Below, one piece after another: positions 5,005 through 45,529 of a stretch of 64,000 bases of DNA. The notes below the pieces were generated by a model. The model made no database searches. It was not told the origin of the DNA and was given only the letters and a program-made list of their open reading frames with translations. A program made the position numbers and the translations under genes. Source of the stretch: Catajapyx aquilonaris (Eukaryota). Where the stretch lies: NCBI GenBank assembly GCA_000934665.2, contig JYFJ02000441.1, positions 1 through 64,000 on the forward strand, written 5' to 3'. Numbering within the stretch: position 1 is the first letter of the stretch; the number at the start of each line of letters is the position of its first letter.

Positions 5005-7032
5005 TCACACTCCTGTATGAACTTGCATGTGCCTTTTCAGTTGATTTCCATGACAAAATTTTTCTTGGCACACCTCACAAATAAATGGTTTCTCTCCTGT
5101 ATGAATACGCATATGAATTTTCAAACTATGGGATTGACGAAATTTCTTCTGGCACACCTCACAAATGTAAGGTTTCTCTCCTGTATGAATTCTCATGTGA
5201 ATATTCAAACTACCTGAATCACGAAATTTTTTCTGACACACCTCACAAATGCATGGTTTCTCCTCTGTATGAATCCGCATGTGATTTTTCAAATGACTTG
5301 CATTACGAAATTTTTTCTGACACACCTCACAACTGTAAGGCTTCTCTCCCGTATGAATTCGCATGTGAGCTTGCCAAGTACTTAAATCACGAAGTTTCTT
5401 TTGGCACACCTCACAAATGTAAGGATTCTCTCCCGTATGAATTCGCATATGTATTTTCAACTGACAAGCATGACAAAAAATTTTCTGGCACACCTCACAA
5501 GTGTATAGGTTATCTCCTGTATGAATTCTCATGTGAGTTCTCAAAACTCTTAATTCACAAAATTTCTTCTGGCACACCTCACAAATAAATGGCTTGGCTC
5601 CTTCATGAATTCGCATGTGCGATTTCAAATGACCTGAACGGTAAAAACTTTTCTGGCACACTTCACATATGTATGGTTTCTCTCCTGTGTGAATTCGCAT
5701 GTGAATTTTAAAAGTACTGGAATCATGAAATTTTTTCTGGCACACCTCACATAAGTATGGCTTTTCTCCTGTATGACTTCGCATATGAGTTTTCAAACCA
5801 CTTGGGCCACGATACTTTTTCTGGCACACCTCACAAACGTAAGGTTTTTCTCCTGTATGACTTAGCATGTGCGTTTTCAAACCTCTTGATTCACGAAATT
5901 TTTTCTGGCACACCTTACAAATGTATGGTTTCTCTTCTGTATGAATTCGCATGTGAGCTTTCAAATTACGTGAATAATGAAATTTCATCTGGCAAACCTC
6001 ACAAACAAAAGGTCTTTCTCCTGAACGAATTCGCTTGCGAGCTTTCAACTCACTGTCAGTTGAACCAGGGAATTTTTTTAATGAGTTTCTTTCCTCCTGG
6101 ATCCCTTTCTTCTCTGCTCCGTCTTCAGATATAATTTGCACCACCTGAAAAGTTGAATAGGAATAAATAAATTTATATTTTGCAATGTGAGTAGTGTGAA
6201 GCATTTCATCTGCGCCATGATCATATGGATGACCCCCTTTATTGTAGAGGCCCGAGATGTTGTTTCATGTATCCACACAATGTATACTGTATGTTAGGCT
6301 CGAACACTGAAAACGTTCATTGATTGGGGAAAAAACAACGAAATTGTTGTTTTCAAAACAATGAAAATGCCATGCGAATTTGGTGTTGTGGGTGGGCAGG
6401 TGAGGTTAGTTTAAGCCAGGGAAATGTGGTTTGTATGCATCCATATACAGAGCAAGAGTGTAGACATTCAGTTCCTGAGTAAAAGGGTAAATTAAATCGC
6501 ATTTCCCGCCAACAAACAGCTTCAGCAAATGATCAAATCCCTGTACCAGTGATCGGCACTTGGCAAAGCCACAATAACGTTCGCCAACCTACAGCTGCAC
6601 AAGACGGGCACTGTTGTCGGGCAGAAAACGCAACCCAGTGCTCAGTTCACTTAGCTTGCAAGTAATATCCCCGGGCATGTGACAGACCTTGCCTGGCAGC
6701 GCCACCAAGCCAAAGAGTATACAGGTGCACAGATGCCAACACAAAATGGCAGTCAATGGCCCTGACTTTCCCCATTCCCACATTTTCAGCAGATTACGCA
6801 CCCCACTCGTCTCTCCATATCCACCTCCTAAAGGGTCTTCTTCGTCCACCCTGGGCATGTCCACCACCATCTCCTCCTCAGGCTCCTCTTTGATCTCAAG
6901 TAAAGTGTCTTGAATAAATGTAGAGTCGTCATCATCAGAAGGTGTCTCCTCCTTCAAGTCGACCCTCCAGGTCTCCTCCATTGTCATTTCTTCCTCTTCC
7001 TCCACTGCTTCCTCCTTTATCCTCAATGACAT
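5005..7032 (-). CDS. Cluster ZNF gene Z1: acidic exon 7032-6802 + 12-finger exon 6144-5005
   Basis: GGG|gtgcgt donor and tttcag|GTG acceptor, both phase 0; open frames. Confidence 0.85.
6545..6750 (+). repeat. Fragment of dispersed repeat family with core aaagccacaataacgttc
   Basis: Homologous to ~13591-13745, ~39602-40200 and (inverted) ~52510-53170. Confidence 0.6.
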
Positions 7033-7151
7033 GGCCCTGCCAACACAAGACTACAGGTCATGTCGTCACATGTCAAGAAGCGTAACTCACCCTTCTGCGT
7101 CCACAAAGAGCCCGACAGATGAAGAGAAGGCCCTTGTCGTCCTAACAGAAG

Positions 7152-7256
7152 TTGTCGGCCATCTTTGACCTTCAATTGGGGTGCATTCATATCGCCACCA
7201 TAAATCAAACATGTGCTTAACAGCTATTGATCATCAAGAGTCGCCGCTACTGGTGC
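7152..7256 (-). promoter_or_regulatory. Cluster promoter module (representative copy): plus-strand gtcggccat / ggggtgcattcccatcgccacc / caagagtcgccgctactggt
   Basis: Recurs upstream of nearly every acidic exon; the first motif reads (A/G)ATGGCCG on the coding strand, YY1/Pho-like. Confidence 0.75.
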
Positions 7257-7656
7257 TCCACTGCGATAGCAGCTAATAAATGAGGATTCGTCAGGGGTAA
7301 TTTAATTTACATTGCAAACTTTATTTAGCCCAAAGTCTAAAAGTGTATGACAATTTCCCATTACCTAACTACATAGGGTAATACTGATCAAACAGCTGTT
7401 GTACCTTTTATTATTTTTCAGTACACATAACCCTTCATGCAATGGAAATCAAGTTATCGTATAATTTACCTAATTGACCAAGCAACACATTTCACTGAAA
7501 ATATGTTTCTTAAAGAACGTCATCCTTACATGACCATCATTCCCACGTTCTCAACTCGAAATTTGCAAGCAATGATTTTGAACACAAAAATCTGCTGTAT
7601 GGCTTCACATGTAAGTTTCAAATGATTCCAATCACAACATGTCACAAATGAAATGG

Positions 7657-9270
7657 TCACACTCCTGTATGAACTTTCTTGTGCCTTTTCAATTGATTTC
7701 CATGACAAAATTTTTCCTGGCACACCTCACAAATAAATGGTTTTTCTCCTGTATGAATACGCATGTGAATTGTCAAACTATATGATTGACGAAATTTCTT
7801 CTGGCACACTTCACAGGTGTAAGGCTTCTCTCCTGTATGAATTCGCATGTGGTTATTCAAACCACTTGATTTACGAAATTTCGTCTCGCACACCTCACAA
7901 GTGTATGGTTTCTCTTCTGTATGAATTCGCATGTGATTTTTCAGAAGACCTGAATAACGAAATTTCTTCTGGCATACCTCACAAATGTAAGGTTTCTCTC
8001 CTGTATGAATTCGCATGTGAGCCTGCAAAGAACTTAAATCACAAAGTTTCTTCTGGCACACCTCACAAATGTAAGGATACTCTCCCGTATGAATTCGCAT
8101 ATGAATTTTCAATTTATGTGCATGACAAAAACATTTCTGGCACACCTCACATGTGTGTAGGTTCTCTCCTGTATGAATTCTCATGTGAGGTCTCAAACCT
8201 TGTAAGTCACGAAATTTCTTCTGGCACACGTCACAAATAAATGACTTACTACTGTCTCCTTCATGAATTCGCATGTGGGATTTCAACTGACCTGAACTAC
8301 AAAAACGTTTCTGGCACATCTCACAAACGAATGGTTTCTCTCCAGTATGAATCCGCATGTGCATTTTCAAACTACCTGATTCAACAAATGATTTCTGGCA
8401 GACGTCACATACGAAAGGCTTTTCTCCTGTATGACTTCGCATGTGAATTTTCAAACTACTTGATTCACGATATTTTTTCTGGCACACCTCACATACATGA
8501 GGCTTTTCTCCTGTGTGACCTCGCATGTGAGTTTTCAAATTACTAGAAGAACGGAATTTTTTCTGGCACACCTCACATACATGAGGCTTTTCGCCTGTGT
8601 GACCCCGCATATGAATTTTCAAAATACTGGAAGAACGACAAATTTTCTGGCACACCTCACAAATGTATGGTGTCTTTTCTGTATGAATTTGCATGTGCGC
8701 CTTCAAATTACGTGAATAACGAAATTTCATCTGGCAGACCTCACAATCAAGAGGTCTCTTTCCTGTATGAATTCGCTTGCGAGCTTTGCCGCGAGCTTTC
8801 GACTCAGTTGCACCAGGAATGTGTCTTTCCATCAGGATCCCTTCCTTTTCTTCTCCGTCTTCAGCTTTCATGTCCACAACCTGAACAAGAAGAATATTTA
8901 TAAATATTTTTCTATGTGAATTGTAGCGTCCCGGCGTCCCACCTGCTATGGTCACATGGATGGTCCCCTTTGTTAGGATACCGGTACATACCCCACTGAT
9001 CTCTCCAGATTCACCTCCTAATAAAGGGTCTTCTTCGTCCACACTGGGCATGTCCACCACCATCTCCTCCTCCTCTGGTGGTTCTTCCTTGATGTCACCG
9101 GGAGTGTCTTGTATGAATTGAGTCGAGTTGAAGCAATAAGACGGGCTCTCCTCCTTCAAGGCCAACTTCCAGCCCTCCTCATCCACCGTGATGTCTTCCT
9201 CCCCTTCTTCCTTCTTTATCATCTGGACAGCTGATGGACATTTCTTTTCCAGGAAAAGGTGGTCGGCCAT
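7657..9270 (-). CDS. Cluster ZNF gene Z2: 13 fingers; first intron and normal ATG deleted; acidic exon ends 8992, finger exon starts 8880
   Basis: 537-aa continuous ORF; 111-nt stop-free intron 8881-8991; junction with 5'UTR-exon sequence near 9228. Confidence 0.8.
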
Positions 9271-9343
9271 TTTCGATGAATTTGGGGTGCATTCCCATCG
9301 CCATGATGGAAAATGGCGGGTCGATCAGCTGATCTTGAGCAGC

Positions 9344-10853
9344 ATGGACCTGGGCATTGTCGCTCTGCTGGTGGCTCGTGGGGCCCTCCGACGGGACCGG
9401 GTCTTCCGAGACCGGGCCAACGCCTTCGAGTTGCCCGACTCGGTGTTCAGGGACGCGTACCGCCTGCCGAAGCATGTGGTAATGCAGGTGTGCGACGCAC
9501 TTAGGGACCGGCTGACAGGACGAGGGCCCACGTCCATGCCTGTTGAGACCAAGGTGCTGGTGGCCCTGCATTTTTATGGCACTGGCAATGCCCAAGACGC
9601 CAATACCATGAGCCACTACCATCCGCAGTCGCAGGCTGGGGTGTCCGTGGCCATAGAGCAGGTCACCAACGCCTTGGTTAGTGGACCTCTTCTGAAGAAG
9701 ATCACGTTCGAGTCTGACAGTGACACTCTGCACAGACGAAAGGTAGGTACATACTGACCCAACCAGGTGGATGGTTCATATCTTCCAACATCTTTTCAGA
9801 GACTTTTTTTTGACAAGTGTCAGCTTCCTGACGTCATTGGTGCATTAGACTGCACGTACGTCAACATCAAGAAGCCATCAAATGTCATAAACCCTATGTC
9901 TTACCTGGACAGAACGGGTAATTTTTCCATCAACGTTGAACTGGTAAGGTGGTCCACATGGCATTGTTTCTGTGACTTTATGATTTATCACCCTAGGTGT
10001 GTGACAGAGAACTACGCATCCTGCACGTGTCAGCGAGATGGCCGGGAAGTAACCACGACTCGTACATATGGAGGAATTCGGGGATGAGGAGCCGTCTGCT
10101 TCGCCTCCCAGGGCTCGGCCATCTCCTGGGTAGGTCTTGATGTGCTCATGTCCACACTGTCCACATGCAGAAAGTTCGGAAGGCCAGGAGAGAACAGCCC
10201 ACTGGATAACATAACCCCATATCATGAACAGTGATTCTGTAGTGCAGTCATTACTGCTTGTAATGACAATATCATTTGTTGCAAATTCTAACACCAGTGT
10301 ATCACCATTTCAGGCGATAGTTGCTATCCACTGGAGCCCTTTCTAATGACCCCTCTCCCAGTTCCAACCAGTGAGATGGAGAAGGAGTACAATTATCGTC
10401 ATGCTGTGGGAAGGAATCCTGTCGAAAGAGCATTCGGGGTGCTGAAGGCACGCTTCAGGTGCCTTCACCATTCAGGAGGAGACCTGGTATACCATCCTGG
10501 GAAGGTGTGCCGTATATATGTGGCCTGTGCCATTTTACATAACGTGTGCCGAGAAGCAGACGGGCGCTTCAAGGAGGACTATGACACAGATGATGATGAT
10601 GATCCTGAGAGTTGTAAGCATTAATGCAGAAAAAATGGTACATGCAGACCACCACCCATCTATAATTATAGGTTCTGATGATGACAAGGAAGACAACCCA
10701 GATGAGGGGTGTCAGTATGATCCTGAGAACGGCACAGCGGCTGCAGCTGTGACAGCCACAATGGCCAGTGAGAAGCGTCAGCAACTGGTGGGCCTGTGCA
10801 CTAGCCACATCAGGAGGCAAGCACTTGCGAGACAGAGGCGAAGGTGTAACTGA
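9344..10853 (+). CDS. PIF/Harbinger DDE transposase (HARBI1-like nuclease), ~385 aa; exons 9344-9742, 9800-9943, 9997-10129, 10314-10613, 10672-10853
   Basis: Motifs VIGALDCT, SINVELVCD, WPGSNHD, LLGDSCYP, VERAFGVLKARF; all introns GT-AG with matching phases (0,0,1,1). Confidence 0.9.
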
Positions 10854-11128
10854 TTTTTTCCCCTGGTGTAACGCAAACTGTGGTGTTCATGTAAGAATTA
10901 TGAGTATTATTTACATTCATTAGTGAATGTATTTAACAAAAATAGTGTAACTTATACGAGTACATTTCACAAATACATGAAATACGTAGAACAAGTAGGT
11001 ACAAAATATATTGAAAAAGTTTTCTGATGAGCAGTACTGAGTTCTTTGTCAGATTTAAAACTGAAAGACGCCCAATGGTGGTACAAATGTTTAATAAATT
11101 ATGAATTATCATGAAGATATTGAATAAT

Positions 11129-11273
11129 GGGGCTGTGCAGACGGGCCGGCCTTGGCCGCAGCCCTGGCCAACTTCCAGGAAGTTGGCCTACGTTGTAAGC
11201 CATGGCCTGGCCGTGGCTTGCCAGGTGTGAACCGTTGCGGCCGCGGCTGGGCTTGGCCCGTCTGCACGGCCCC
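11129..11273. mobile_element. GC-rich Harbinger-type MITE between the 3' ends of the nuclease and Myb genes
   Basis: TIR ggggctgtgcagacgggcc / ggcccgtctgcacggcccc in AT-rich flanks. Confidence 0.7.
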
Positions 11274-11568
11274 TATAATTTATCTGAAGACAATTTCTTG
11301 AAACATACGTAAGTGGTGAAATGAACACAAATAAATGAAGCTTGGTACTTGTTGGTGGACAAACTCTTCAACACTGCAGGTATTTTCTGGCATTACTGGA
11401 TTACCGAACATGAAAATATGAAAGTACATGATGGTTTTGGTCACATTCCATCAGTCAAATTGTTGGCATTGTATAGGTTTTTTTTTGGTTTGTTTAGCAA
11501 TTAGAAATGAAATCACTGTTTCTTTCTCGTAATACAGTAAGAATCTGGAAATAAAAATGTATACATAT

Positions 11569-13295
11569 CTATGTATCTTGTTGAGTGGTCCTTAACTTGA
11601 TCATTTCCTGCAGGGCCAAGGCAATTGTCCCCAGGTGGGAGGACATCACAGCGTGGTGTCGGTTGGCTTCTCTTTGTTCTTGAAGCATCTTTACGCGGTG
11701 TAGGTTGGCTTGTCTTTGTTCTTGCAGCATCAGTGCGTGGTGTCGGTTGGCTCGTCTTTCTTCTCGAAGCATAGCGTTGTTGTGCTCAGCAGCCTGTGTG
11801 GGTAGTTAAGAATTAGGCATGAGCTCAGATCTAAATAATTCAGCAAGTCCCAGAGTACATAAATTGTGACACATGCTTGTTCCAGGTATTGTTCCAACTG
11901 GGTGTTGCGGGTACGCCTCTCCGTCCTCCTCCTCTCTTGCCTGGGCCTGGCACCTGCACCGGTAGAGGGCTGCTTGGGGGGATGTTGGTTTGTGCCTTGG
12001 GTAGACTCACCACGGGTAGACCTGTTGGACGCACCAGTCACACTGCAATAAGGTTCCATGACAAATTGGTAAGTAGCAAGACAATGTTGTCACATGGAAT
12101 GGACACTGGAAGAAACATAGCTGGTGTGAATTTTCCTTTACTTCCTGTTCATATGTACTATATCGCCCAAAAAGATGGAGACGATTTTGCATTTGACTCA
12201 AGTGCAACTTGCACTTGAATCAAATGCCAATCGTCTCTATCTTTTTGAGCGATATAGTACATCATGTTCACAGAAATGCGAGGCAGTTCATTATCTGACT
12301 TCGGAAAAATTTTCACTTACTTGGTCACATTACTGGTGTCCACTCCCAGGCTCTCGCCTTCAACATTTTCAATACCAATGAATGGCAGCACCTCCTCCTC
12401 CAATGGTGTGAGGGCTGCACAGGCTGGCCCTCCTCCAGTACCTTGCTTATGCTTGTAAACAGCATTGGCCTTTGATTTCACCTGTGTGATAATAATGGCA
12501 ATCATGAGTGAAAAGTTGAAAAGCAGTTTCATTTATGATCCGACAGGTTATAAAAAGTAGTGACAATACGAAGTGGAACCCTGATATATCATGCACTTCA
12601 ATTTCTGCGTGATTATTATTAGTACGGGTTATTAGTGATCACAGCTCATCAACATCATTGGCATGTATGAAATACTTCCTGTTCCGGGACGCTCATTGGT
12701 TTCATTGCTAGCTACAGTATGGGTAAGCTAACTTATGGGTTTTGGGAGGTGGCTTGTGTCCTTGGCAGCCATAATTAAGCCCCGCCCCCTACCGGTCGAC
12801 CAATCAGGATTCGATATCAAAGGAGGTGGGCATTATAAAATCTCAACAATGAGTTTGTTTACACTAACGCAGTTGGTAACTTAGCAGAGGAGAAATATTT
12901 CCCAACTAATCCTTTTAAATTCCATACCAAAGAACTCAGCAGGGGGCGGGGCTAATATGACTGCCAAGGACACAAGCCACCTCCCAAAACCCATATTAGC
13001 TTACCCCTACTGTAGCTGTAATAAAAATAATATATTTCATTGCATGCTATACCCAGCTTTTGTAATAGGACCACTTTTCCCTCGTCTCTGTGCCCGTTCT
13101 TTCATTGCCTCCTACTGCATTCACAACAGCGGCACATGCCTCCCAAGCGCCCCTGAGGGCCTCAGAATTGGGCAGGGTGGGACATAAGACACCACCCGCC
13201 AAATCCTCGTGGTCCTTCAGGTATCCAACGAGAGCAGACAGCTCTTGGCCAATCCAATTTGGGCGCCTCTGCTTTCTACCACTAGGCCGACTCAT
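11569..13295 (-). CDS. Harbinger Myb/SANT-like DNA-binding protein, ~264 aa; exons 13295-13053, 12481-12321, 12042-11877, 11793-11569
   Basis: RRPNW...EL..L...AW..C...VN...RT...REKW trihelix pattern, GTGGGP motif, C-terminal coiled-coil repeats; last intron needs a GC donor (caa|gcatgt). Confidence 0.8.
12153..12262. repeat. Near-perfect 110-bp palindrome in Myb gene intron 2
   Basis: atgtactatatcgc...caagtgcaa c ttgcacttg...gcgatatagtacat. Confidence 0.8.
12715..13012. mobile_element. Tc1/mariner-type MITE in Myb gene intron 1
   Basis: ~75-bp TIRs with CAGT/ACTG ends, TA TSD; inverted second copy at 62306-62604. Confidence 0.85.
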
Positions 13296-13812
13296 ATGGG
13301 CTGCAGAATTCGTACTTTACCACCAGTGGGCATAAATTATAGCGCGCCCTTTTCCTGAATTGGCGGTTAGAAGCCTGTTGCTGTCACGGGAAGATCTGGG
13401 GGGCGACTCCGGCCGATTATTATCATATGAGAGGCCACCACGATTGAAGATATAAGGCTCCTTTACCGGCGGCCATACTTGAGCCACCACGATTCCGCCC
13501 CGTTCCGCAAACCGATAGAGGCGCCACCAGAAATGCGTGCGCAATTGACCACTTTTAACGTTCAGAGACCTCTGGCGGTTTCAACTCGCCACGGGCAGAA
13601 AGCACGACCACAGTGCTCACTGCTCAGCTCACTTAGCTCATAATATCACCGGACAATGTGACAAACCTTGCCTGGCAGGGCCACATAGACAGACAGTACA
13701 AGTGCGGTCACTCCAAGGCTACACAGATGCCACCAACTCAAAACGATAGTAAAATCTGATGTGACTTTTCCCATCATTAAAGGTTATCCAATATATTCAG
13801 AAGATTACCTAC

Positions 13813-14070
13813 CCCACTCTTATTATCTCCATATTCACCTCCTAAAGGGTCTTCTTCGTCCACCCTGGGCATGTCCACCACCATCTCCTCCTCCTCTGGT
13901 GGTTCTTCCTTGATCTCACGTAGAGTGTCTCGTATGAATTGAGTCGAGTCTCCATTGAAGCAAGACGGGCTCTCCTCCTTCAAGGCCAACTTCCAGGTCT
14001 CCTCATCCACTGTTATGTCTTCCTCTTCCTCCACTTCCTCCTTATTCTTTATCATCTGGACCAGAGACAT
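13813..14070 (-). CDS. Acidic cluster exon (copy B) with its own promoter (~14234-14332) but no adjacent finger exon
   Basis: Intact MSLVQMIK...DPLGG frame; intron homology to Z1 stops near 13591, where Harbinger sequence begins. Confidence 0.75.
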
Positions 14071-14886: not shown

Positions 14887-16307
14887 TCACTCTCTTGTAT
14901 GAATACACATGTGACTTTTCAAGTGAGCTGCATTGCGATATTTCTTCTGGCACACTTCACAAGAAAGGGGCTTCTCTCCTGTATGGATTCTTCGCATGTG
15001 CCTATTGAAACTACTTGAATCACTGAATTTTTTCTGGCACACCTCACAAATGTAAGGTTTCTCTCCGGTATGAATTCGCATGTGAGTTCTCAAAGTACTT
15101 GATACACTAAATTTCTTCTGACATACTTCACAAATGTAAGGCTTTTCTCCTGTATGACTTCGCATGTGAGTTTTCAAATGACTTGATTCATGAAATTTTT
15201 TCTGGCACACCTCACAAATAAATGGTTTCTCTCCTCTATGAATTCGTAGATGAATTTTCACAGTACTTAAGTCACGAATTTTTTCATGGCAAACCTCACA
15301 AGTGTATGGTTTCTCTCCTGTATGAATACGCATATGATCTTTCAGATTACGTGAATAACGAAATTTCGTGTGGCAAACTTCACAAACAAACGGTCTCTCT
15401 CCTGTATGAACTCGCATGTGAGATTTCAAATGACTTGAATCACGAAATTTTTTCTGGCACACCTCGCAAATACATACTTTTTCTCCTGTATGAATTTTCA
15501 TGTGGGTTATCAAACCACCTGAATCACGGAATTTTTTATGGCACACCTCACAAATAAATGGTGTCTCTCCTGAATGAATACGCATATGAATTTTCAAACC
15601 ACTTGAAGCACGAAATTCCTTCTGGCACACCTCACAAATAAATGGTTTTTCTCCTGTATGAATTCGCATGTGAATTTTCAAGTAACTCGCATCACGAAAC
15701 TTTTTATGGCACACCTCACAAACAAATCGTTTTTCTCCTGAACAAATTCGCTTGCAAGTTATCATAGTTGAACCGGGAATTTTTTTTAATGAGTTTCTTT
15801 CCTTCCGGATAATCTCTTCCACTCCATCTTCAGTTCTCACTTGCATCACCTGAAACGTGAATAAGAGTACATCAATTTACCAGTGTGAATAGTGTCAAGC
15901 GGATTCCCTACAAAATGTGTTAGTACCACCTTTTTTGCTACTGCGTCCCCTAAAAGCAGCACTAGTGTGGGCATTTCCTACACATCTTCCAAGTCTGGGT
16001 GTTTGATTTGTACTAATCATTTTGTGGGACTTTAATTTCACATTTTCAGCAGATTACGTACCCCACTCGTCCTCCCTCCAGATTCACCTCCTGAAGGGTC
16101 ATCCTCGTCCACCCTGGGCATGTCCACCACCATCTCCTCCTCCTCTGGTGGTTCTTCCTTGACCTCACCTAGAGTGTCTTGTATGAATTGAGTGGAGTCC
16201 CCGTCGAAGCAAGACGGGCTCTCCTCCTTCAAAGTCATCCTCCAGGTCTCCTCATCCACTGTTATGTCCTCCACTTCCTCCTTCTTTATCATCCGAGAGA
16301 GTGACAT
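14887..16307 (-). CDS. Cluster ZNF gene Z4: acidic exon 16307-16062 + 10-finger exon 15849-14887
   Basis: Phase-0 GT/AG sites; first intron deleted at a gtcc microhomology near 16312. Confidence 0.85.
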
Positions 16308-16903: not shown

Positions 16904-19814
16904 TCACTCTCCAGTGACATGGATTCGCATGTGAGTTTTCAAACAGCTTAAGAAACGAAATTTTTTCTGGCACACCTCACATGTAAATGGTTTCTCTCCT
17001 GTATGAATTCGCATGTGAGTATTCAAAGTACCTAATTCACGGAATTTCTTTTGACACACTTCACAATTAAATGGTTTTTCTCCTGTATGAATTTGCATGT
17101 GGGCTTTCAGATGACCTGAATGACGAAAGTTTTTCTGGCACACCTCACAAATATATGGTTTCTCTCCTGTATGAATTCGCATATGAGTTTTCAGACAACT
17201 TGAGAAACGAAATTTTTTCTGGCATACCTCGCAAATAAATGGTTTTTCTCCTGTATGAATTAGCATGTGAGACTTCAAAGTACATGAATCACGAAAGTTT
17301 TTCTGGCACATCTCACAAACAAATGGTTTCTCACCAGTATGAATTCGCATGTGAGTTTTCAAACTATTTGATTCACAGAATTTTTTCTGGCACACCTCAC
17401 AAATGTGTGGGGTCTCTCCTGTATGAATTCGCATGTGAGTTTTCAAATGATGTGAACAACGAAATTTCATATGGCACACCTCACAAACGAATGTTCTCTC
17501 ATCTGTATGAATTAGCATGTGAGTTTTCAAAGTACGCAAACGACAAAAACTTTTCTGGCATACCTTACAAATAAAGGTTCTCTCTCCTGTATGAGTCTGC
17601 ATGTGAGATTTTAATTGAGCCGAATCACCAAATTTTTTCTGGCATTCCTCACAAGTAAATTCTTTCTCTCCGGTATGAATTCGCATGTGAACTTTCAAAT
17701 GACCTGAGTGACGAAAATTTTTCTGGCAAACTTCACAAATGAACGGTTTCTCTCCCGTATGAATTCGCATGTGAGTTTTCAAATGACTTGAATGACCAAA
17801 TCTCTTCTGGCACACCTCACAAATATATCGTCTTTCTCCCGTGTGAATTTGCCTGGGAGTCCCTTTCTTCTCTACTTCATCTTCAGTTCTCATTTGCCCA
17901 ACCTGAAACATGAATAAGAGTACATAAATTTCTATTTTTGCAATATGAATAGTGTGAAGCATTCCTCCTGCTATGGTCATATGGATAGTAAGTCCTGTTT
18001 ATTTTATAGTCACAACATGTTGTCTCATGTATCCATCGATTGTACTACCAAAAATTTCATTGTAACTACAAAGAATGTTACGATGACAGAAAAAATTACC
18101 ACTGTTGGATCGACGTCAGATTATTGGCACATTTGCATGCAAATATTTTGAAAACCTGCCCAAATTTACTGTTACTTTAATGGATCCAATTCCACGAGGC
18201 AGCCCCCACGAGAAAAGTGAATGCAAGGTCTGTTAGCCTACGGGTAAATTACAGAGTGATTTAATTGCAATTCCATAAAAGTATTGTCTAAGACTATTGC
18301 TTTCTGCAGAATTAAAATAATAGCAACTGACAGTTCGAAATATATGCTGGGAATTGAATGCTGGAGACACACCTTCCTATCTTCCAGATAAAAATGTCAC
18401 TCTTCAGGACTGAAATTACGGGATTCCTTGGCGCCGTCAAACCAAGTGCATATGATTATGACTGCTCTGTGAGACACTGTATATGATTTCTATTCTATGT
18501 TTTATTGTTATAGAGGCATAATTGCACCAATTACCTTTTTAAAAAAACTTAAATGAGAACAAAAACATTCCTTGCCGTAAAAGGAAGAGAAGACCTCCGT
18601 GGCAGAAATGAAAGTATTGAAACAAGGCAGGCACATGTAAGACCTTCACCAATTGATTTAAGCTGTACCATAGGTCTTATTCGAGCAATTCTGTAGTATT
18701 GTGCTGAATGGCTCATAAAAAATACTACTCCAAACTACTCAACCTACTCATGGCAGTAGGCAGGGTTTTATTTTGGGAAAAATGAACCCATCCTCACAGA
18801 ATTTAAATTTTTGCAGCTGAAAATGCAGAATCCCATCCAAAAAAAGACCCTCAAAAAATTCACCAATTTTCGTCTACATGTGAAAAAAATTTAAATTCTC
18901 TGAGAATGGGTTGATTTTCCCCCAAATAAAAGCCTGCCTACTGCTATGAGTCCCTCTCTAATACAAATCAGGTACTAAAACAAGACAAGTCTACGAAAGG
19001 GGTTACGTTCCTGAAAATGGCCATAAGTCAGAATTGTACATAACTCGGATCCATGAGGAACAGCGCATAATATGTAGCGTAAAAATGATGCACCTACAAA
19101 CCGCTTACGTCGTGTGCATTTGTTCGCATGCGCGGAAGAACATGGTTTCCCAATTATTTATTAATTATACAGTATTGATGTTGAACTTCGTGTCTGCCAA
19201 CGTACGCAGAAATGATTGAAAGTGGAAGGATAATTATGAATTATCCTACTGGGGCGCCTTGGAGGCCGTAAGTAAGTATGGACGGCCGGAAGTCGGGTCG
19301 TTCGTAAACTGAGGACTTCCTGGCCTATGTTTAAAGGCACTAATCATAGAGAAATTTTATAAGCTCAATATTGCAGTTCCTTAATTTCAGAAAATGCTCG
19401 TATATGAAGTGGCTCATGAAACTGTTTTCAGAAAGGATGCTTTATGAGCAATAAATTGGGAATTGCTTGGAGCAAGACCTACGGTATACAGCTTAAATCA
19501 ATTGGTGACGGTACTTTCTTTTCTTTTTACTGAAATGAAAGGTTTTTGTTCTCATCACATTTTCAGCAGAGCACACTCATCACCTCTCCAGAAACACCTC
19601 CTAACGGGTCATCTTCGTCTACCCTAGGCATGTCCACCGCCATCTCCTCCTCCTCTGCTGGTTCTTCCTTCTTGATATCAACGAGAGTCTCTTGAATAAA
19701 TGTCGAGTCGTCATCATCAGACGGTGTCTCCTCCTTCACGTCGACCCTCCAGGTCTGCTCCACTGCCATTTCTTCCTCTTCCTCCACTGCTTCCTTCTTT
19801 ATCCACAATGACAT
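16904..19814 (-). CDS. Cluster ZNF gene Z5: acidic exon 19814-19584 + 11-finger exon 17902-16904
   Basis: Open frames; phase-0 acceptor; donor gag|gtgatg is less canonical. Confidence 0.8.
18746..18951. mobile_element. MITE-like fold-back element in Z5 intron
   Basis: ~65-bp imperfect TIRs actcatggcagtaggcagg... / ...cctgcctactgctatgagt. Confidence 0.7.
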
Positions 19815-29792: not shown

Positions 29793-29854
<62 letters not shown>

Positions 29855-31049: not shown

Positions 31050-31160
31050 TACCCCACTCACATTTCCAGATCCACTTCTTAAAGGGTCTTATTTGTCCAC
31101 CCTGGGGATGTCCATCGCAATCTCCTCCTCCTCCTCCTCCTCTAGTCCTCTTCCTCCTAC
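31050..31160 (-). pseudogene. Truncated remnant of the acidic exon
   Basis: aaagggtctt...tccaccctggggatgtccatcgcaatctcctcc matches the EEE..IDIPRVD..DPL half only. Confidence 0.65.
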
Positions 31161-32157: not shown

Positions 32158-32159
<2 letters not shown>

Positions 32160-32238: not shown

Positions 32239-32835
32239 TCATTTGTGAATTCGCATGTGAGATTTCAAATGACCTGAACGGTAAAAACTTTTCTGGCACA
32301 CCTCGCAAATATATGGTTTCTCTCCTGTATGAATTCGCATGTGGCTTTTCAAATTACTGGCGTCACAAAATTTCTTCCGGCACACCTCGCAAATAAATGG
32401 TTTTTCTCCTGTATGAATTCGCATGTGACTTTTGAATTGATGTGAATGCCGAAATTTCTTCTGGCAGACCTCGCAAATATATGGTTTCTCTCCTGTATGA
32501 ATTTGCATGTGAATTTTCAAATTACTCGAGTCACGAAATTTCTTCTGGCACACCTCGCAAATAAATGGTTTTTCTCCTGTATGAATTCGCATGTGAATGT
32601 TCAAATTACTCGAGTCACGAAATTTTTTGTGGCACACCTCACAAACAAATGGTTTCTCTCCTGTATGAATTCGCATGTGACATTTCAAACTCCTTGCAGC
32701 AGAATAAAATTTCTGGCACACGTTGCAAATGAATTGTTTTTGTCCAGTGTGACTTCGCCTGCGAATTTTCAACTGAATTGAAGCTTTCTGGATCTCCTTC
32801 TTTTCCACTCCATCTTCAATTCGCATTTCCACGAC
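32239..32835 (-). CDS. Orphan 6-finger exon (Z9) with no dedicated acidic exon or promoter
   Basis: Intact tttcag acceptor and frame; 32836-36170 holds only intron-like and TE sequence. Confidence 0.7.
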
Positions 32836-36243: not shown

Positions 36244-38838
36244 TCATTTGTGAATTCGCATGTGAGATTTCAAATGACCTGAACGGTAAAAACTTTTCTG
36301 GCACACCTCGCAAATATATGGTTTCTCTCCTGTATGAATTCGCATGTGACTTTTCAAATTACCTGATTCACAAAATTTCTTCTGGCACACCTCGCAAGTA
36401 AATGGTTTTTCTCCTGTATGAATTCGCATGTGACTTTTCAAACTACCCGACTCACGGAATTTCTTCTGGCACACCTCGCAAGTAAATGGTTTTTCTCCTG
36501 TATGAATTTGCATGTGAATTTTCAAAGTTATTGAATTACGAAATTTCTTCTTGCATACCTCACAAGTACATGGTTTCTCTGCTGCATGATTTAGCTTGTG
36601 AATTTTCAAATTACTCGAGTCACTAAATTTCTTCTGGCACACCTCGCAAATATATGGTTTTTCTCCTGTATGAATTCGCATGTGAATTTTCAAATTACTC
36701 GATTCACGAAATTTCTTCTGGCACACCTCGCAAGTAAATGGTTTTTCTCCTGTATGAGTTCGCTCGTGAATTTTCAAACTATGGGATTGACGAAATTTTT
36801 TCTGGCACACCTCACAAACAAATGGTTTCTCTCCTGTATGAATTAGCATGTGACATTTCAAACTGTTTGCAGCAGAAAAAAAATTCTGGCACACGTTGCA
36901 AATGAATTGTTTTTGTCCAGTATGAATTCGCCTGCGAATTTTCAACTGAATTGAAGCTTTCTGGATCTCCTTTTCCACTCCATCTTCAATTCGCATTTGC
37001 ACAACCTGCAATGTCAATAAGAGCATATCAATTTCTATTTTGTAGCGTAGGCTACACATTATATACTAAAATAGTGTGAAGGATTCCACCTGCTACCGTC
37101 GTTTGTGAGGTCCCGTCTATTAAACATAGGGGCATGAAGTTGTCTAATGTATCCACACATACAATCACAAATTTCAGTATAGCTACATGAAATGTTAGAA
37201 TGGCATGAATAATGAACTCTGTGGAATCGAGGTCAGAAATGGTAATTTTATTTTCACATTCGTTATCTTAGCATGTGAATATTTTAGAAAACTTGCTCAA
37301 ATTTCCTGGGAAGTCATATATATTGTTGGGTCATTCCATGTCAATTCTGTAAATGATGGTGGTTCGATCCCTTCCGAAAAAAATCATGTAGTTAGGTATC
37401 GACACCTTATTGCGAAATCCTAAATTTGAGGCCGTTGGAGTCAAATCTCACGGATATATAACAATGGAAAGTTCAACAATGACGTCCATGTAAAGTATTT
37501 TTAACTGTTCAGACTGTTCTCCCGACTCCAACATGTTACATATCAAATGGAAGGCAATCAAGAGAGTTATAACATGGTTACAAAATATTCGACCTAACTC
37601 GAAAAACGACGTCGCAAAAAAATTCGCACATATATGTCCAAATCACTCTATATTCCCGATAGCAGTTTCGATGGGTTCTCTCCGTGTTCGCGTGGGTTTT
37701 TCCGGGGTTCTCCCGTTTCCTCCCGCAATCAAAATTCATCACAGCAAAGGCAATGATTAAAGACGGTTATTCAAAAGATGATCCCCTAAGAGGCCCAAGG
37801 AGGCCTATCACGGGGGTATCCATTATCATCCATTATTATTATATTCCCGATAGCCGTAACTCGTAACATTATGATTTTAACAAAGTGATATTTAGGATAC
37901 AGGGCAATCACCTAGTTTGTTAAATGCACATGCAAAACCTCAGTGTGATAGGTCAAGCAGGGTTGGAAATAAAAATTCCCGAAAATATGAATTACCGCAT
38001 TTTGCCGATTTTCGAGTTCAAATTTCTCCAGGTAGGACTGGATCGATTTTGACTTTTGGTATGTCAATAGATTCCTTAGATCACCCCCTATTCAGAAATG
38101 CATAACACATTCTTTACCCGTGATCGATAATAATTGAACGGCTGAAACACGTGGCATTAAATTCCTCATAAAAAGGAACACTCACTATGCTGGTTTAATG
38201 CCATAATCCCACTGGATTTTTATAGCGAACAAACACAGACTTCCTAAAACATGGACGCAGATATTTTAAACTGGGTTTGCTGCTGGACCAGAGAGATTGA
38301 ACAATGTTGATGGAATATCATAATTGTCCTTGGATGATGATTATTATTTTTATTATTACTATTAATTTCCTCTTCATACAAAAGTGTCATTATTTGATCA
38401 CATGGTGATACTAGTACAACATATCATGAGGATTTTGCAATGGGAATTATGTACTGTACAGTACATCACCATGTGGTTGAGGATTGTGAAAATTATTTCC
38501 AAAGCATCTTCCAATAGTCTGGGCGATTAATTTGTACTGGTCATTCTGTGTCACATCAGTGCAAAATAATTACATCACATTTTCACCACATTACGCACCC
38601 CTCCTGATCCGCCTCCTAAAGGGTCATCCTCGTCCACCCTGGGCATGTCCACCACCATCTCCTCCTCCTCTGGTGGTTCTTCCTTGATCTCACGTAGAGT
38701 GTCTCGTATGAATTGAGTGGAGTCCCCGTCGAAGCAAGACGGGCTCTCCTCCTTCAAGGCCAACTTCCAGCCCTCCTCATCCACCGTGATATCTTCCTCC
38801 TCCACTTCCTCCTTCTTTATCCTCTGCACCAGTGACAT
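36244..38838 (-). CDS. Cluster ZNF gene Z10: acidic exon 38838-38599 + 8-finger exon 37005-36244
   Basis: Phase-0 GT/AG sites; promoter module ~39012-39121. Confidence 0.85.
37662..37830 (+). mobile_element. 5'-truncated copy of SINE family 2
   Basis: Matches the reverse complement of 39863-40030. Confidence 0.7.
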
Positions 38839-40543: not shown

Positions 40544-40578
<35 letters not shown>

Positions 40579-40909: not shown

Positions 40910-41287
40910 AAATTTCCTTATAAAACCTTCTCCAAGCCAAACCGCGAAGACTTAACACACATGGCATATTACAATATTACAATATTATTACCAAAAGAAC
41001 TAATATGTTCTACCTACTGACCTGCAGTTTTTCCCACACCAGGAGACGGCCCGAGATGTTTACTCGCCGACAGTCATCAATCTAATAAACAATCCCTCCC
41101 CCTATTGCACCAGCACAGAACGGGGGCCAATCAGAAGCATCGCGCTAAATACGACGGCGAATCAGACGCCTTACACAAACACGCCGAATACGACTTTTGA
41201 ATTATAATATCATTATCGCAGGTTAGTTTCCAAATCCCTTGAATCACGATATTTGTTCTGTTGCATGTCACAATGACATGGTCAATC

Positions 41288-43575
41288 TCATATGTGAATT
41301 TGCAGGTGAGTTTTTAAATGACTTGCATAGCGAAAAAATTTCTGGCACACCTCGCAAATGTATGGTTTCTCTCCTGTATGAATTCGCATGTGACTTTTCA
41401 AATTACTCGATTCACAGAATTTCTTCTGGCACACCTCGCAAATAAATGGTTTATCTCCTGTATGAATTCGCATATGAATTTTCAACCCACTTGAATGACG
41501 AAATTTTTTCTGGCACATCTCGCAAATAAATGGTTTTTCTCCTGTATGAATTCGCATGTGAATTTTCAACCGACTTGAATGACGAAATTTTTTCTGGCAC
41601 ACCTCACAAACGAAAGGTTTTTCTCCTGTATGAATTTGCATGTGAGTTTTCAACCTACTTGAATTCCGAAATTTCTTCTGGCACACCTCGCAAATATATG
41701 AGTTCTCTCCTGTATGAATTCGCATATGACTTTTCAAATTACTCGATTCACGAAATTTCTTCTGGCACACCTCGCAAATAAATGGTTTTTCTCCTGTATG
41801 AATTCGCATGTGAATTTTCCACCGACTTGAATGACGAAATTTTTTCTGGCACACCTCACAAACAAATGGTTCCTCTCCTGTATGAATTAGCATGTGAGTT
41901 TTAAAATGATGTGACTTCCGAAATTTCTTCTGGCAGACATCGCAAATATATGGTTTCTCTCCTGTATGAATTTGCATGTGACGTTTCAAAGTTATTGAAT
42001 TACGAAATTTCTTCTTACATATCTCACAAATAAATGGGTTCTCTGCTGAATGAATTCGCATATGACTTTTCAAATTACTCGATTCACGAAATTTCTTCTG
42101 GCACACCTCACAAATAAATGGTTTTTCTCCCGTATGAATTCGCATGTGAATTTTCAAACTACTTGATTTACGATATTTCTTCTTGCACACCTCACAAATA
42201 AATGGTTTTTCTCCCGTATGAATTCGCATGTGAATTTTCAAACTACATGATTGACGGTATTTCTTCTGGCACACCTCACAAACAAAAGGTTTCTCTCCTG
42301 TATGAATTCGCATGTGAATTTTCAAACTCTTTGCAGCAGAAAAAAATTTCTGGCACACGTTGCAGATGAATTGTTTTTGTCCAGTATGAATTCGCCTGCG
42401 AAATTTCAACTGGATTGAAGCTTTCTGGATCTCCTTCTTTTCCACTCCATCTTCAATGCGCACTTGCATGACCTGAAACGTCAATAAGAGCATATCAATT
42501 TCTATTTTGTAGTGAAGGTTACATATATTATAAGAGTGTGAGGGATTCCACCTGCTACCGTCATTTGTAAGGTCCCGTTTCTTAAACGTAGGGGCATGAA
42601 GTTGTCTAATGTATCCACACATTGCATACTGTACAATCACAAATTTCAGTAGAAGTCCAGTAGAAGAAATGTGGGAATGGCAGCATTAATGAAGTGTGTG
42701 GAATCGAGGTCAGAAATGATAATTTTATTAGCAGTCATGAATTTGTAGGTTTTACCTTATTAAGTGAACTTATCTCGGAAACACTTATCTGGGGGTTTGA
42801 GGCGTCCATAAACCCTCAGACCGTTAAGGGAAGGGGGCTAGGGGGGAAGGGTTGGCAACCAGCTGAGAGGGTCGAGTCGAGGGGTGTAGGTCGGGGTCTG
42901 GTGGAGGGGGGCGACCAGTTGTTTTCATTCCCACTCCACTTGTGACACAGACACATTGTGGCACATGAATAATCCTCCAAGCAATTAATTACACACTTAC
43001 CACTATACCAATGCGTATGTCCAACACGAAGTAATGTACCATGTAGTATTTGCTCCTGGCTATCTAACGGCACGATTTGCATAATTTTTGGTACATTTTC
43101 AACTGAGAAAAATTGAAAGACAGCTTTTACATTAGAGAATAGGCAAACAGTAACGCCATCTCTGGGCCAAGATGCAGCGCTCCAAAGGGGTAAGAATTCT
43201 CGTTAATATTCGCTGGCAAGTAGTACAGGAAGGAGTATGCAAGAATGAAATACACTTCATATTAAGTTATTTCATTTATGTTTGTATACTTGATATTCTT
43301 AAAAGGGGCTGTGCATGTTGTGGGAGTTTAGCGCATTTTTTTGGAAGCTGAAACATGTGGCATTAAATTCCTCATAAAAGGAACACCCAGTATGCTGGTT
43401 TAATGCCGTGTAGGGGCATTCCCCTGGATTATTATAGTGAACAAACACACAAACTTCCTAAAATATAGACATAGCTATTTTAAATTGGGTTTGATGCTGG
43501 ACTAGAGAGATTGAACAATGTTTATGGGAAAGAAAATACATCAAAGTTTCACTGTAGTTAGAACACATTGTCCTG

Positions 43576-43653
<78 letters not shown>

Positions 43654-43941
43654 GCCCGGGGACACCCCCTTCATCTTGTGCAAAGTTCAGGGTCACCTCT
43701 GGCTTCATCTCTGGTGGTATTTCCAACAGACTGAACCACCCGGGGGAGTTCACTAAAAATGGCCACGTTTAAGACATTGCACTGCACCTTGCACATCCCC
43801 TCCTGTCATCCTGCCCGTGAGCCTGGGCGCTTTGTCAAAGGTTCTAATTGTGTACATTGTATGAGTTAATAAATAAAGGTCCGTGCAATACCCGAAGAGG
43901 CGTCCAAGCACTCCCCGGATTGATTGATTGATTGATTATTA

Positions 43942-43997
<56 letters not shown>

Positions 43998-44492
43998 AAT
44001 AATAATAATAATAATTTCATATTCAGACAAAAGTGTGATTATTTGATCAACTGGTGATACTAGTACAAGATATCATGAGGATTTTGCAATGGGAACCATG
44101 TACTCCACATCATATGTGGCTGAGTTTAATATCAGCAGGAGTGTAAAAATTTCCCAAGCATCTTCCAATAGTCTGGGTGATTAATTTGTACTGATCATTC
44201 CGCGTGACTTTAGTGCAAAATCACACCACATTTTCACCACATTACGCACCCCTCCTGATCCGCCTCCTAAAGGGTCATCCTCGTCCACCCTGGGCATGTC
44301 CACCACCATCTCCTCCTCCTCCTCCGGTGGTTCTTCCTTGATCTCACGTAGAGTGTCTCGTATGAATTGAGTCGAGTCCCCGTCGAAGCAAGACGGGCTC
44401 TCCTCCTTCAAGGCCAACTTCCAGCCCTCCTCATCCACCGTGATATCTTCCTCCTCCACTTCCTCCTTCTTTATCCTCTGCACCAGTGACAT
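41288..44492 (-). CDS. Cluster ZNF gene Z11: acidic exon 44492-44250 + 13-finger exon 42472-41288
   Basis: Phase-0 GT/AG sites; promoter module ~44669-44769. Confidence 0.85.
43653..43920 (+). mobile_element. 5'-truncated SINE family 1 copy inside a microsatellite
   Basis: cccggggacacccccttcatc...cccctcctgtcatcctgcccgtg. Confidence 0.75.
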
Positions 44493-45529
44493 GGTCCTTC
44501 CTGCCAACACACAAATACTGCAGGCGTCATGTGATCATGTGCCTAGAAGGGCAGCTCACCCTTCTGCGTCCTCCACACCAGTCCGAGTGAGGGGAAAGAG
44601 AGCCCAACAACTGAAGAGAACGATGAGAAGAGACGAGACGGGTCGGAAGAAGGACTGTTCTAAAAGTTGTCGGCCATCTTTGATATTGAACTTCAATTGG
44701 GGTGCATTCCCGTCGCCACCAGACATCGAGGACGTGTTTAAGCGCTATTCCTCATCAAGAGTCGCCGCTTTTGACATAGCCGCTAATCCCAGATGATGTT
44801 GACTCACAACAGAAACTGATCACTGAAATGGTTATTATAACTTGTGCAATATATGGGACCAAAGAAAATGAAAAAGTAAATAAATACCCAAGTTCACAAA
44901 ATTTATTTTTACTTGTACAGCTACAAACCCACATTTTAATAAGTCTTTTTGGAGTAAATATCTGTCTGAAATACAAATTCAAAATCATCATCATTTTTTA
45001 AATCCAATGTGCATGCTGATTTTGAAATCATCTTTATTTTGCACAAACTTGAGCATATTAATATTGCATACCTAGACCAGTCCATTTTGATGCAGGCAGT
45101 GGGGAATGATTTTGTAATGCAGAACTTTGTCAACGTGAATGCTTTAAATTGTGAAATATGTTAGTCATTGCTTTTAGAAAACTTGAATTTAGTATTCTGG
45201 ATGCATCTAGCTCAGTGACGCGTGGATTCATGCAGTGCAAAAGATAATTAATTTCAGCTACATGATCATGATCTGCATTTTGGAGCACTTGCGACGTGAT
45301 CAAGATAACCCTGGACGTGATGACTGCTAATGGAAATTAATAAAACTACTGCAAGACCAAGAGGAATAAGTTCACCAATTTTTTACACTCTGATCCAAAG
45401 TTTTCAGAAATGGTTATTCGGGCTGAACTTGTAACAATTTTTTTGTGCCTTGTTTGCATTAAAATAATTATTACATGTGCACCACAAATAATAATTTGTG
45501 CAAAAAGCATTTTCTGTCCATTGTTGACA

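Follow-up and report, generated by a model that had tools for sequence, protein, structure and literature searches.

A tandem family of poly-C2H2 zinc-finger (ZNF) genes in Catajapyx aquilonaris carries an acidic N-terminal exon that, from its sequence, is apparently a new and lineage-specific ZNF-associated effector-type exon. The exon is held constant by purifying selection while the DNA-contact residues and the number of fingers diversify, the evolutionary regime of the transposon-repressing KRAB-ZNF and FiNZ-ZNF families. Three conserved lysine motifs suggest repression through SUMO attachment, and we put the chance that the exon represses via SUMO on these three ψKxE lysines a little below even. 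The window is the whole stretch of DNA analysed, 64,000 nucleotides of contig JYFJ02000441.1 (assembly GCA_000934665.2).

Acidic and finger exons form a tandem cluster

A tblastn search with one copy as query returned 11 intact acidic exons of ~77-87 codons (E 2e-22 to 3e-56), all on the minus strand and starting at 7032, 9222, 14070, 16307, 19814, 21578, 22941, 26026, 30334, 38838 and 44492 (c1 to c11); elsewhere in the window it found no copy beyond these and one degenerate fragment that contains an in-frame stop (31032..31142, minus strand). We found 10 finger exons in total, each encoding 5-13 C2H2 fingers, and nine of the 11 acidic exons own one. All of these lie on the minus strand. The c11 gene has an acidic exon of 81 codons (44250..44492; donor GGG/GTGCGT, the slash marking the splice site) and 13 fingers (41288..42472; phase-0 acceptor at 42472), c10 has 80 codons (38599..38838) and 8 fingers (36244..37005), and c9 has 80 codons (30095..30334) and 9-10 fingers (26872..27717). 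The most divergent copy, c8, has 86 codons (25769..26026), its second ψKxE site deleted, and 12 fingers (23435..24541). Further along, c6 has 80 codons (21339..21578) and 5-6 fingers (20408..21043), c5 has 77 codons (19584..19814) and 11 fingers (16904..17902), c4 has 82 codons (16062..16307) and 10 fingers (14887..15849), and c1 has 77 codons (6802..7032) and 12-13 fingers (5005..6144). In c2 (acidic exon 8992..9222; 13 fingers, 7657..8880) the MSL has been replaced, and 9222 is the position of the first ATG inside the exon.

Predicted splice signals link the two kinds of exon. A phase-0 GT donor ends 10 of the 11 acidic exons, in nine copies as GGG/GT[AG][CTG]GT and in c5 as GAG/GTGATG, and all 10 finger exons sit behind one common phase-0 acceptor, ..TTATT.AC.TT[TG]CAG/G; nine copies combine the donor with this acceptor before a finger exon. 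A look-up of RNA runs for 26800-30400 listed none. The c2 intron (111 nt) is open in frame. In most copies a conserved AGAAGG/GTGAG donor and a ~60-70-nt intron ending TTGGCAG/GACC-ATG lie just upstream of the ATG, c4 being the copy without this short 5'UTR intron. They belong to an upstream block common to the copies, which in c11 begins at 44769 by blastn (44493..44769, minus strand) and holds the AGAAGG/GTGAG donor followed by a ~65-nt intron ending TTGGCAG/. The 10 upstream regions that we aligned contain invariant AAAGATGGCCGAC-like and GGTGGCGATGGGAATGCACC-like motifs, and we read the block, from blastn and the alignment, as conserved promoter and 5'UTR with a probable non-coding exon. 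The genes thus probably consist of three exons: a short non-coding exon, the ~80-codon acidic exon and a single finger exon.

These results bear on a preliminary description of the locus. Its 11 intact copies of an ~80-amino-acid exon are borne out, as is its KRAB-like architecture without KRAB: the genes stand in tandem and pair a conserved coding exon for the N-terminus with a finger exon that varies. Its phase-0 intron between the two is upheld by splice signals in nine copies and fails for c3, which has no finger exon of its own, and for c7, which has no donor. The two-exon layout holds for the acidic and finger exons but not in its count, given the 5'UTR donor and intron upstream of the ATG, and the range of 6-13 fingers is right at its upper end only, arrays starting at 5.

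Two copies, c3 and c7, are irregular, and one finger exon stands alone. The c3 acidic exon (13813..14070, minus strand, 86 codons) is intact with its donor, and is cut off from the next finger exon by a Harbinger-type transposon remnant plus the acidic exon of c2. The remnant lies between c3 and c2 at 9330..13700 (limits approximate) and contains DDE_Tnp_4 (10292-10621, plus strand) and Myb_DNA-bind_5 (13050-13316, minus strand); its GC content is 0.46-0.47 against about 0.39 in the flanks. The donorless c7 (22036..22941, minus strand) reads on into 222 further in-frame codons, Cys/His-rich and non-ZNF, and this extension had no match in Pfam, PDB or ESM Atlas. One finger exon (32239..32835, minus strand, 6 fingers) has no acidic exon upstream; a single N stands at 33428.

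The acidic exon is conserved while finger contacts diversify

The c9, c10 and c11 acidic exons differ by 4, 4 and 2 synonymous and 0 non-synonymous changes, and other pairs give dN/dS of 0.13-0.83, mostly 0.13-0.5. In most pairs the exon is better kept than the opening 250 nt of its intron (98% versus 90% for c9/c10). Gene conversion could add to this conservation. Columns that are invariant or nearly so cluster most densely at residues 57-74, within which a lysine-free block of 17 residues (58-74) is nearly invariant, and position-specific conservation is seen also at W24, S40, T41, M61, V63 and P73. Finger contact codons, by contrast, show dN/dS of 1.39 against 0.24 at other codons in 62 best-match finger pairs, which were selected for similarity outside the contact codons and are not mutually independent. 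Finger entropy peaks at positions -1, +2, +3 and +6 (3.52, 2.69, 3.30 and 2.64 bits) and is at most 2.2 bits elsewhere.

The acidic exon matches no characterised domain

A Pfam-A hmmscan of eight of the 11 exon copies at E<=10 gave no family for seven; the eighth had a chance-level match to PTPlike_phytase (E 0.14). ZAD needs four zinc-binding cysteines, and each exon has at most one. The hmmscan returned no KRAB (PF01352), ZAD (PF07776), BTB or SCAN (PF02023) match at E<=10 in these eight copies, in agreement with the preliminary description, whose proposed Pfam search and profile of all 11 exons thus found no characterised domain. Searched against 1.84e9 (1.84 billion) representative proteins, a collection that does contain animal ZNF proteins, this profile matched no animal protein; its sole match, a 2376-aa bacterial YD/RHS-type repeat protein, was rejected as compositional. 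A PDB profile search with the exon gave no matches, a word-indexed homologue search against longer proteins yielded 454 candidates with none at E<=0.01, 598 pattern matches in metagenome contigs gave none that was confirmed, and the best ESM Atlas score (0.85) was below the useful range. The c2 open reading frame (555 aa) had only zinc-finger-type families among the best 25 of 27 Pfam matches, and 7364 ZNF protein matches from fish, molluscs, insects and mammals, all at or below 53% identity.

The acidic exon is predicted to be mostly disordered, as AlphaFold2 gave a mean pLDDT of 64.7, a pTM of 0.18 and only two short helices; model confidence is highest at residues 61-70 (mean pLDDT 79). The c9 exon has 26 D/E versus 9 K/R in 80 residues and a net charge of about -17. 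W, F, L and M are scattered among the acidic residues, with one W and two F per exon.

Conserved lysine motifs suggest a possible role of SUMO

Strict [VIL]KxE motifs occur three times per copy in seven of the 11 copies and twice in the other four, so that the reported retention of three ψ-K-x-E/D sites in most copies stands for those seven on the strict motif; c6 and c7 carry IKQD at the third site. The motif is enriched over shuffles of each copy (means of 0.11-0.25 versus 2-3 observed), with P(>=observed) of 0.0001-0.021 per copy in 20,000 shuffles. These statistics are weak evidence: the motif is short and likelier in K- and E-rich sequence, and the per-copy values are not independent because the 11 copies are paralogues. 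Every occupied cell at the three motif positions, 32 of 32 (11/11, 10/10 and 11/11 copies), holds K and none holds R, while basic sites outside the motifs vary, K9 being 8K/3E and K25 5K/4R/1M/1T. By sequence and model, the exon carries the SUMO consensus, [VIL]-K-x-E within a predicted disordered region.

The two SIM-like stretches proposed earlier fared less well. A canonical SIM core is [VIL]x[VIL][VIL], [VIL][VIL]x[VIL] or three consecutive V/I/L, beside acidic residues. In six of the 11 copies such a core is absent throughout; the proposed ITVD site has one only in c8 (VVV), and the proposed MVVD site only in c7 (VVDI).

We suggest that the fingers would bind DNA, leaving the N-terminus exposed as a transcriptional repression module. 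Ubc9 would attach SUMO to K8, K29 and K52 (numbered as in c9), and the attached SUMO would bring in heterochromatin factors that carry a SIM, of the SETDB1, Mi-2 and HP1 type; the lysine-free block at residues 58-74 probably docks a further partner. SUMO-dependent repression is plausible and precedents exist: the SUMO-acceptor motif is already known as a repression module from human transcription factors (10.1101/2022.08.26.505496; PMC2978682). As reported from a human screen, of 166 repression domains that contain SUMOylation motifs at least 149 needed these motifs to repress, and a 10-aa IKEE tile of MGA was enough to repress (10.1101/2022.08.26.505496). SUMOylation of the Sp3 IKEE site is described as bringing SETDB1, Mi-2, L3MBTL1/2, HP1 and H3K9me3 (PMC2978682). 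Against this, a Drosophila repression-domain screen reports that repression domains carried SUMO motifs no more often than other fragments did (PMC9890238). An E-to-D change in the Sp3 IKEE impedes SUMOylation according to the same Sp3 report (PMC2978682), and by analogy the IKQD at site 3 in two copies would count against the SUMO reading.

Alternative roles of the acidic exon

Conservation is strongest in the lysine-free residues 58-74, so the chief effector could be a docking motif that has nothing to do with SUMO. The exon would then repress or signal by cofactor docking through this block, W24 and the DST-F region, with the ψKxE motifs incidental or regulatory. The density of invariant columns and the high model confidence there both fit such a role, although we recognised no known corepressor motif in the block on inspection by eye; CtBP is bound by PL[DN]L, and Groucho by eh1 and WRPW. 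A parallel exists in that KRAB and FiNZ are also glutamate-rich modules and KRAB works by docking a cofactor, TRIM28 (PMC10547256). Docking leaves unexplained why three motif lysines never become R when other basic sites do, and we consider it improbable as the main role. Acidic-tail autoinhibition is known in other DNA-binding proteins, and the exon's strong negative charge beside a very basic finger array would also suit a tail with no effector role on chromatin, acting as an intramolecular DNA mimic that shields the fingers, thereby adjusting specificity or solubility, or as a stability or localisation element; acidic residues are reported to have raised tile protein levels in the human screen (10.1101/2022.08.26.505496). 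We think this very unlikely: pure charge would not need the position-specific residues listed above (W24, S40, T41, M61, V63, P73), nor lysines that are never R.

The composition of the exon could equally be that of an activation domain exposing W, F, L and M, perhaps damped by SUMO at ψKxE sites of the "synergy-control" type, which would make these proteins activators or bifunctional. The acidic excess of c9, the interspersed hydrophobic and aromatic residues and the predicted disorder agree with this, as acidic and hydrophobic composition is described as marking activation domains, bifunctional tiles exist (10.1101/2022.08.26.505496), and Sp3 joins activation domains with an inhibitory IKEE site (PMC2978682). 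Just one W and two F per exon speak against it, however, and those fast-diversifying tandem ZNF clusters that have been studied, KRAB and FiNZ, are described as repressors (PMC10547256). Deleting SUMO motifs inside activation domains, moreover, is reported to have rarely altered activation (10.1101/2022.08.26.505496). We give activation a small chance. Should the acidic exon prove to activate, or simply to dock a partner, it would still be another independent invention of a ZNF-associated effector exon, of moderate specialist interest.

Comparison with known ZNF effector systems

The cluster is reminiscent of the tetrapod KRAB-ZNF genes (PF01352), in which N-terminal effector exons are likewise spliced to a single finger exon (the splicing here being predicted) in tandem clusters, with a conserved effector, diversifying contact residues and a promoter architecture common to paralogues. 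It differs in that KRAB docks TRIM28, while the candidate mechanism here is direct SUMO conjugation. ZAD, BTB/POZ and SCAN share the N-terminal position in multi-finger proteins and lineage-specific expansions, but are folded dimerisation domains, in contrast to the predicted disorder here (pTM 0.18). Like the cluster here, the FiNZ-ZNF genes of cyprinid fish are described as a large tandem family in which a single glutamate-rich exon for the N-terminus precedes one ZNF-array exon, with adaptive finger evolution and no similarity to known domains; by that published description FiNZ is 28 aa and confined to cyprinids, versus ~80 aa here (PMC10547256). The one cypriniform protein among those retrieved had no similarity to the acidic exon, and the absence of any animal protein from the profile's matches in the 1.84e9-protein collection argues against close similarity to FiNZ.

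The motifs themselves are widespread. Identical IKEE, IKKE and LKEE stand in disordered acidic context beside a C2H2 domain in SP3, MGA and the repression domains of DelRosso et al. (10.1101/2022.08.26.505496; PMC2978682), and the SUMO-SETDB1-H3K9me3 route is documented for Sp3 itself (PMC2978682), whereas for the motifs here it is a candidate route. SP3 and MGA are unique conserved transcription factors with single sites; here three sites lie in a dedicated exon copied across an expanding ZNF family. Among 115 other poly-ZNF proteins retrieved, 26, mostly teleost and one from a sea urchin, have at least three [VIL]KxE motifs ahead of the fingers at shuffle P<=0.01, with repeated VKEE, IKEE and VKSE in acidic, Pro/Trp-containing regions upstream of long finger arrays. 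These modules are longer, repeated and, as far as protein sequences show, not a single N-terminal exon, and we rejected deep homology to them (best HMM domain E-value 0.45 among 120 proteins; hhalign probability 1.5%, against only 3 teleost segments). Because ψKEE-rich acidic pre-finger regions occur in these 26 of 115 unrelated poly-ZNF proteins, the motif class is neither unique nor lineage-specific: a caveat to that effect in the preliminary description proves broader than it stated, and its term "lineage-specific" holds for the exon sequence, which has no relative in 1.84e9 proteins, and not for the motif class.

According to Wells et al. (2023), it is not known by what means FiNZ and further ZNF families outside KRAB repress transposons without TRIM28; for FiNZ the cofactor is given as unknown and TRIM28 as not available (PMC10547256). 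In the library searched, we found no paper naming both FiNZ and SUMOylation as whole words, and nothing about ZNF family expansions among work on IKEE/SUMO zinc-finger repression. The cluster supplies a compact and well-delimited module with which to address this question, three lysines plus one invariant 17-residue block, and the motif-rich regions of many unrelated ZNF proteins suggest wider application of any answer. Direct SUMO conjugation to clustered ψKxE might be a convergent general effector for poly-ZNF families lacking KRAB and TRIM28, the candidates being the Catajapyx family, the ψKEE-rich teleost and sea-urchin modules and possibly FiNZ. We regard this generalisation as unlikely; if true, it would explain transposon silencing by ZNF expansions outside KRAB, and the 80-aa exon would be the minimal natural example.

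Sequence around the cluster

Rfam returned no matches on the whole window at gathering thresholds. Two IR-like genes adjoin the cluster and hint at an invertebrate through weak Lig_chan matches of 27.7 and 29.7 bits, which fall below the 30.8-bit cutoff; an IR-like gene had no protein match at E<=1e-5.

A tandem zinc-finger gene cluster with a repeated acidic exon

In this stretch of animal DNA, C2H2 zinc-finger genes form a tandem cluster at about 5.0-44.8 kb on the minus strand, and the preliminary description of it is confirmed, with corrections. A tblastn search of the 64-kb window, with a single copy as query of the acidic exon, the coding exon that precedes the finger exon, bore out the 11 intact copies reported (E 2e-22 to 3e-56; here c1 to c11, by rising coordinate). 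These are 68-100% identical in protein sequence to the first copy; the search also recovered a degenerate fragment with an in-frame stop (31142-31032), and no further acidic-exon-like sequence elsewhere in the window.

Gene structures were predicted from genomic sequence alone. A phase-0 GT donor ends 10 of the 11 acidic exons, reading GGG/GT[AG][CTG]GT in nine and GAG/GTGATG in c5, and is missing in c7; the same pyrimidine-rich phase-0 acceptor precedes all 10 finger exons. These carry 5-13 fingers each, which keeps the upper bound of the 6-13 first reported and lowers the other. Nine of the acidic exons each have a finger exon of their own, across introns of 111 nt to about 2.4 kb, in line with the proposed order of acidic exon, phase-0 intron and finger exon, from which c3, c7 and an orphan finger exon depart.

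In most copies TTGGCAG/GACC-ATG lies directly before the start codon, and AGAAGG/GTGAG opens an interval of ~60-70 nt before it. Farther upstream is a ~200-nt block with invariant AAAGATGGCCGAC-like and GGTGGCGATGGGAATGCACC-like motifs, the former recalling a YY1-type site. We read this upstream sequence as a probable shared promoter, short non-coding first exon and mini-intron of ~60-70 nt, as at 44493-44769, with homologous blocks upstream of the other copies, in which both motifs are near-invariant; the mini-intron is absent from c4. Given the interval and the shared block, the genes probably have three exons, and not the two of the KRAB-like layout first proposed, and the common promoter-like block suggests co-regulation of the family.

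The irregular members differ in kind. The c3 copy (14070) is intact and is followed by the remnant of a Harbinger-type DNA transposon (~9330-13700; DDE_Tnp_4 at 10292-10621, plus strand, and Myb_DNA-bind_5 at 13050-13316, minus strand), with GC exceeding that of its flanks, and then by the acidic exon of c2, which has lost its MSL start and whose 111-nt intron is open in frame. In c7 (22941) the reading frame runs on past the acidic exon for 222 Cys/His-rich codons (22036-22701, minus strand) that are not zinc finger and found no match in Pfam, PDB or Atlas; c7 may be a chimeric gene in which the acidic module is joined to another kind of domain. No acidic exon accompanies the finger exon at 32239-32835, and a single N lies at 33428.

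The acidic exon matches no characterised domain

In keeping with the earlier reading that no KRAB, ZAD, BTB or SCAN signature is present, a profile of the 11 exons together with Pfam scans matched no characterised domain (Pfam, E ≤ 10; 1.84 billion representative proteins). Seven of the eight copies scanned had no Pfam family at that threshold, and the single match of the eighth was at chance level; no PDB chain matched the profile at E ≤ 1. The profile's one match among the 1.84 billion proteins, a bacterial YD-repeat protein, was discounted as compositional, and neither the 5.8 billion proteins searched through a word index nor the metagenome contigs scanned yielded relatives. The null protein searches carry weight because the same collection yields thousands of animal zinc-finger proteins for the finger part. 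The closest of these finger matches reach at most 53% identity, and the source lineage therefore seems absent from the collection; relatives of the acidic exon in unannotated genomes would be compatible with the null results. AlphaFold2, run with the 11-sequence alignment, gave a mean pLDDT of 64.7 and a pTM of 0.18, with just two short helices (residues 3-11 and 41-51). On this model, the most fitting description of the exon is that of an acidic, intrinsically disordered region rather than a fold.

Constraint on the exon and diversity at finger contacts

The three youngest acidic-exon copies differ from one another by 4, 4 and 2 synonymous substitutions and by no non-synonymous ones. Over all 55 pairs, which are not independent and to which gene conversion may contribute, dN/dS ranges from 0 to 0.83, mostly 0.13-0.5, the top values coming from pairs with the irregular copies c2 and c7. 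In most pairs conservation is higher in the exon than over the opening 250 nt of its intron, and conservation of the 270 nt upstream is on a level with that of the exon. Among 90 canonical finger units, entropy peaks at helix positions -1, +2, +3 and +6 (3.52, 2.69, 3.30 and 2.64 bits), all other positions having at most 2.2 bits. In 62 best-match pairs from different genes, finger dN/dS is 1.39 at the four contact codons versus 0.24 at the other 24, a contrast that is indicative and not a formal test because the pairs were picked by similarity at non-contact codons and their ancestry overlaps.

KRAB-ZNF and FiNZ-ZNF families are described as showing the same pattern, in which the N-terminal exon stays constant while contacts diversify and the number of fingers changes (PMC10547256). 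The present family is a new and apparently lineage-restricted version of this design, an effector exon joined to a variable array of fingers, FiNZ being compared by its published description.

Candidate SUMO sites and competing explanations

Seven of the 11 copies have three sites that fit the strict SUMO acceptor consensus, [VIL]KxE, and the remaining four have two: site 1 of c3 is interrupted by an insertion, site 2 is deleted in c8, and site 3 is IKQD in c6 and c7. The claim of three psi-K-x-E/D sites in most copies holds for those seven in strict form. Composition-preserving shuffles, 20,000 for each copy, gave means of 0.11-0.25 sites, and 0.01-2.1% of them had as many sites as were observed. 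More telling for a SUMO reading is the conservation of the lysines (K8, K29 and K52 in c9 numbering), which are K in 11/11, 10/10 and 11/11 copies at sites 1-3 and never arginine, while the remaining basic positions vary (K9, 8K/3E; K25, 5K/4R/1M/1T; R45 and R49 variable); the pattern is consistent with a requirement for lysine as such, as at a conjugation site. The two stretches proposed as SUMO-interaction motifs fared worse, the canonical core being found at the first only in c8 and at the second only in c7, and being absent altogether from 6 of the 11 copies.

The literature precedent for SUMO-motif repression is strong. In human cells, tiling showed that of 166 repression domains with SUMOylation motifs at least 149 depended on them, and a 10-aa IKEE tile of MGA was enough for repression (10.1101/2022.08.26.505496). 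At the IKEE site of Sp3, SUMO brings SETDB1, Mi-2, L3MBTL1/2 and HP1 with H3K9me3, and changing IKEE to IKED impedes SUMOylation (PMC2978682); the D variants of c6 and c7 should therefore not be counted. This IKED effect is evidence against the SUMO reading, as are a Drosophila screen, in which SUMO motifs were no commoner inside repression domains than outside them (PMC9890238), and the densest conservation of the exon, which falls in a lysine-free block (residues 58-74). Among the rival readings, an effector acting through a docking motif is unlikely, and equally so an acidic activation domain; a role away from chromatin is more doubtful again. A SUMO-acceptor mechanism is the best-supported single hypothesis, which we hold tentatively, at a little under an even chance.

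The motif grammar is widespread

The caution that such motifs occur in other arthropod zinc-finger proteins, and that their class may not be unique, was correct and reaches beyond arthropods. Among 120 zinc-finger proteins retrieved by finger search, 115 had 40 aa or more ahead of the fingers, and 29 of these pre-finger regions contained at least three [VIL]KxE motifs, 26 of them in excess of shuffles at P ≤ 0.01. Most motif-rich proteins are teleost, with repeated VKEE, IKEE and VKSE modules, and one is from sea urchin; among them, the poly-zinc-finger proteins P0065, P0086, P0093, P0003, P0105 and P0119 carry such repeated acidic modules upstream of the fingers. Their motif grammar is alike, but no homology to the acidic exon was detectable: by sequence comparison the exon family is new and the grammar widespread. 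Literature searches found, within the library covered, no paper tying FiNZ to SUMOylation, on IKEE-type motifs in zinc-finger family expansions, or treating the teleost and sea-urchin modules as SUMO-site arrays.

Neighbouring genes

Two long single-ORF genes on the minus strand, at 45530-47629 (699 codons stop-to-stop) and 48162-50132 (656 codons), have weak Lig_chan scores of 27.7 and 29.7 bits, against a 30.8-bit cutoff, and resemble divergent ionotropic-receptor-type chemoreceptors; a protein search found no homologue of the second product at E ≤ 1e-5. Overlapping His-rich or Pro/Ser-repeat ORFs at 60026-60626 (minus) are of low complexity and match no family. At 51641-52315 (minus), neighbouring ORFs in two different frames encode ubiquitin and ribosomal protein S27a domains; they represent a ubiquitin-RPS27a fusion gene with two exons or else a copy that has suffered a frameshift. 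C2H2 ORFs outside the cluster, at 526-1236 (plus) and at 2167-2451, 55811-57049 and 61261-61860 (minus), are without an acidic exon and differ in their N-terminal regions. Beyond the Harbinger remnant, the plus strand has a further Myb_DNA-bind_5 ORF at 63580-63999.
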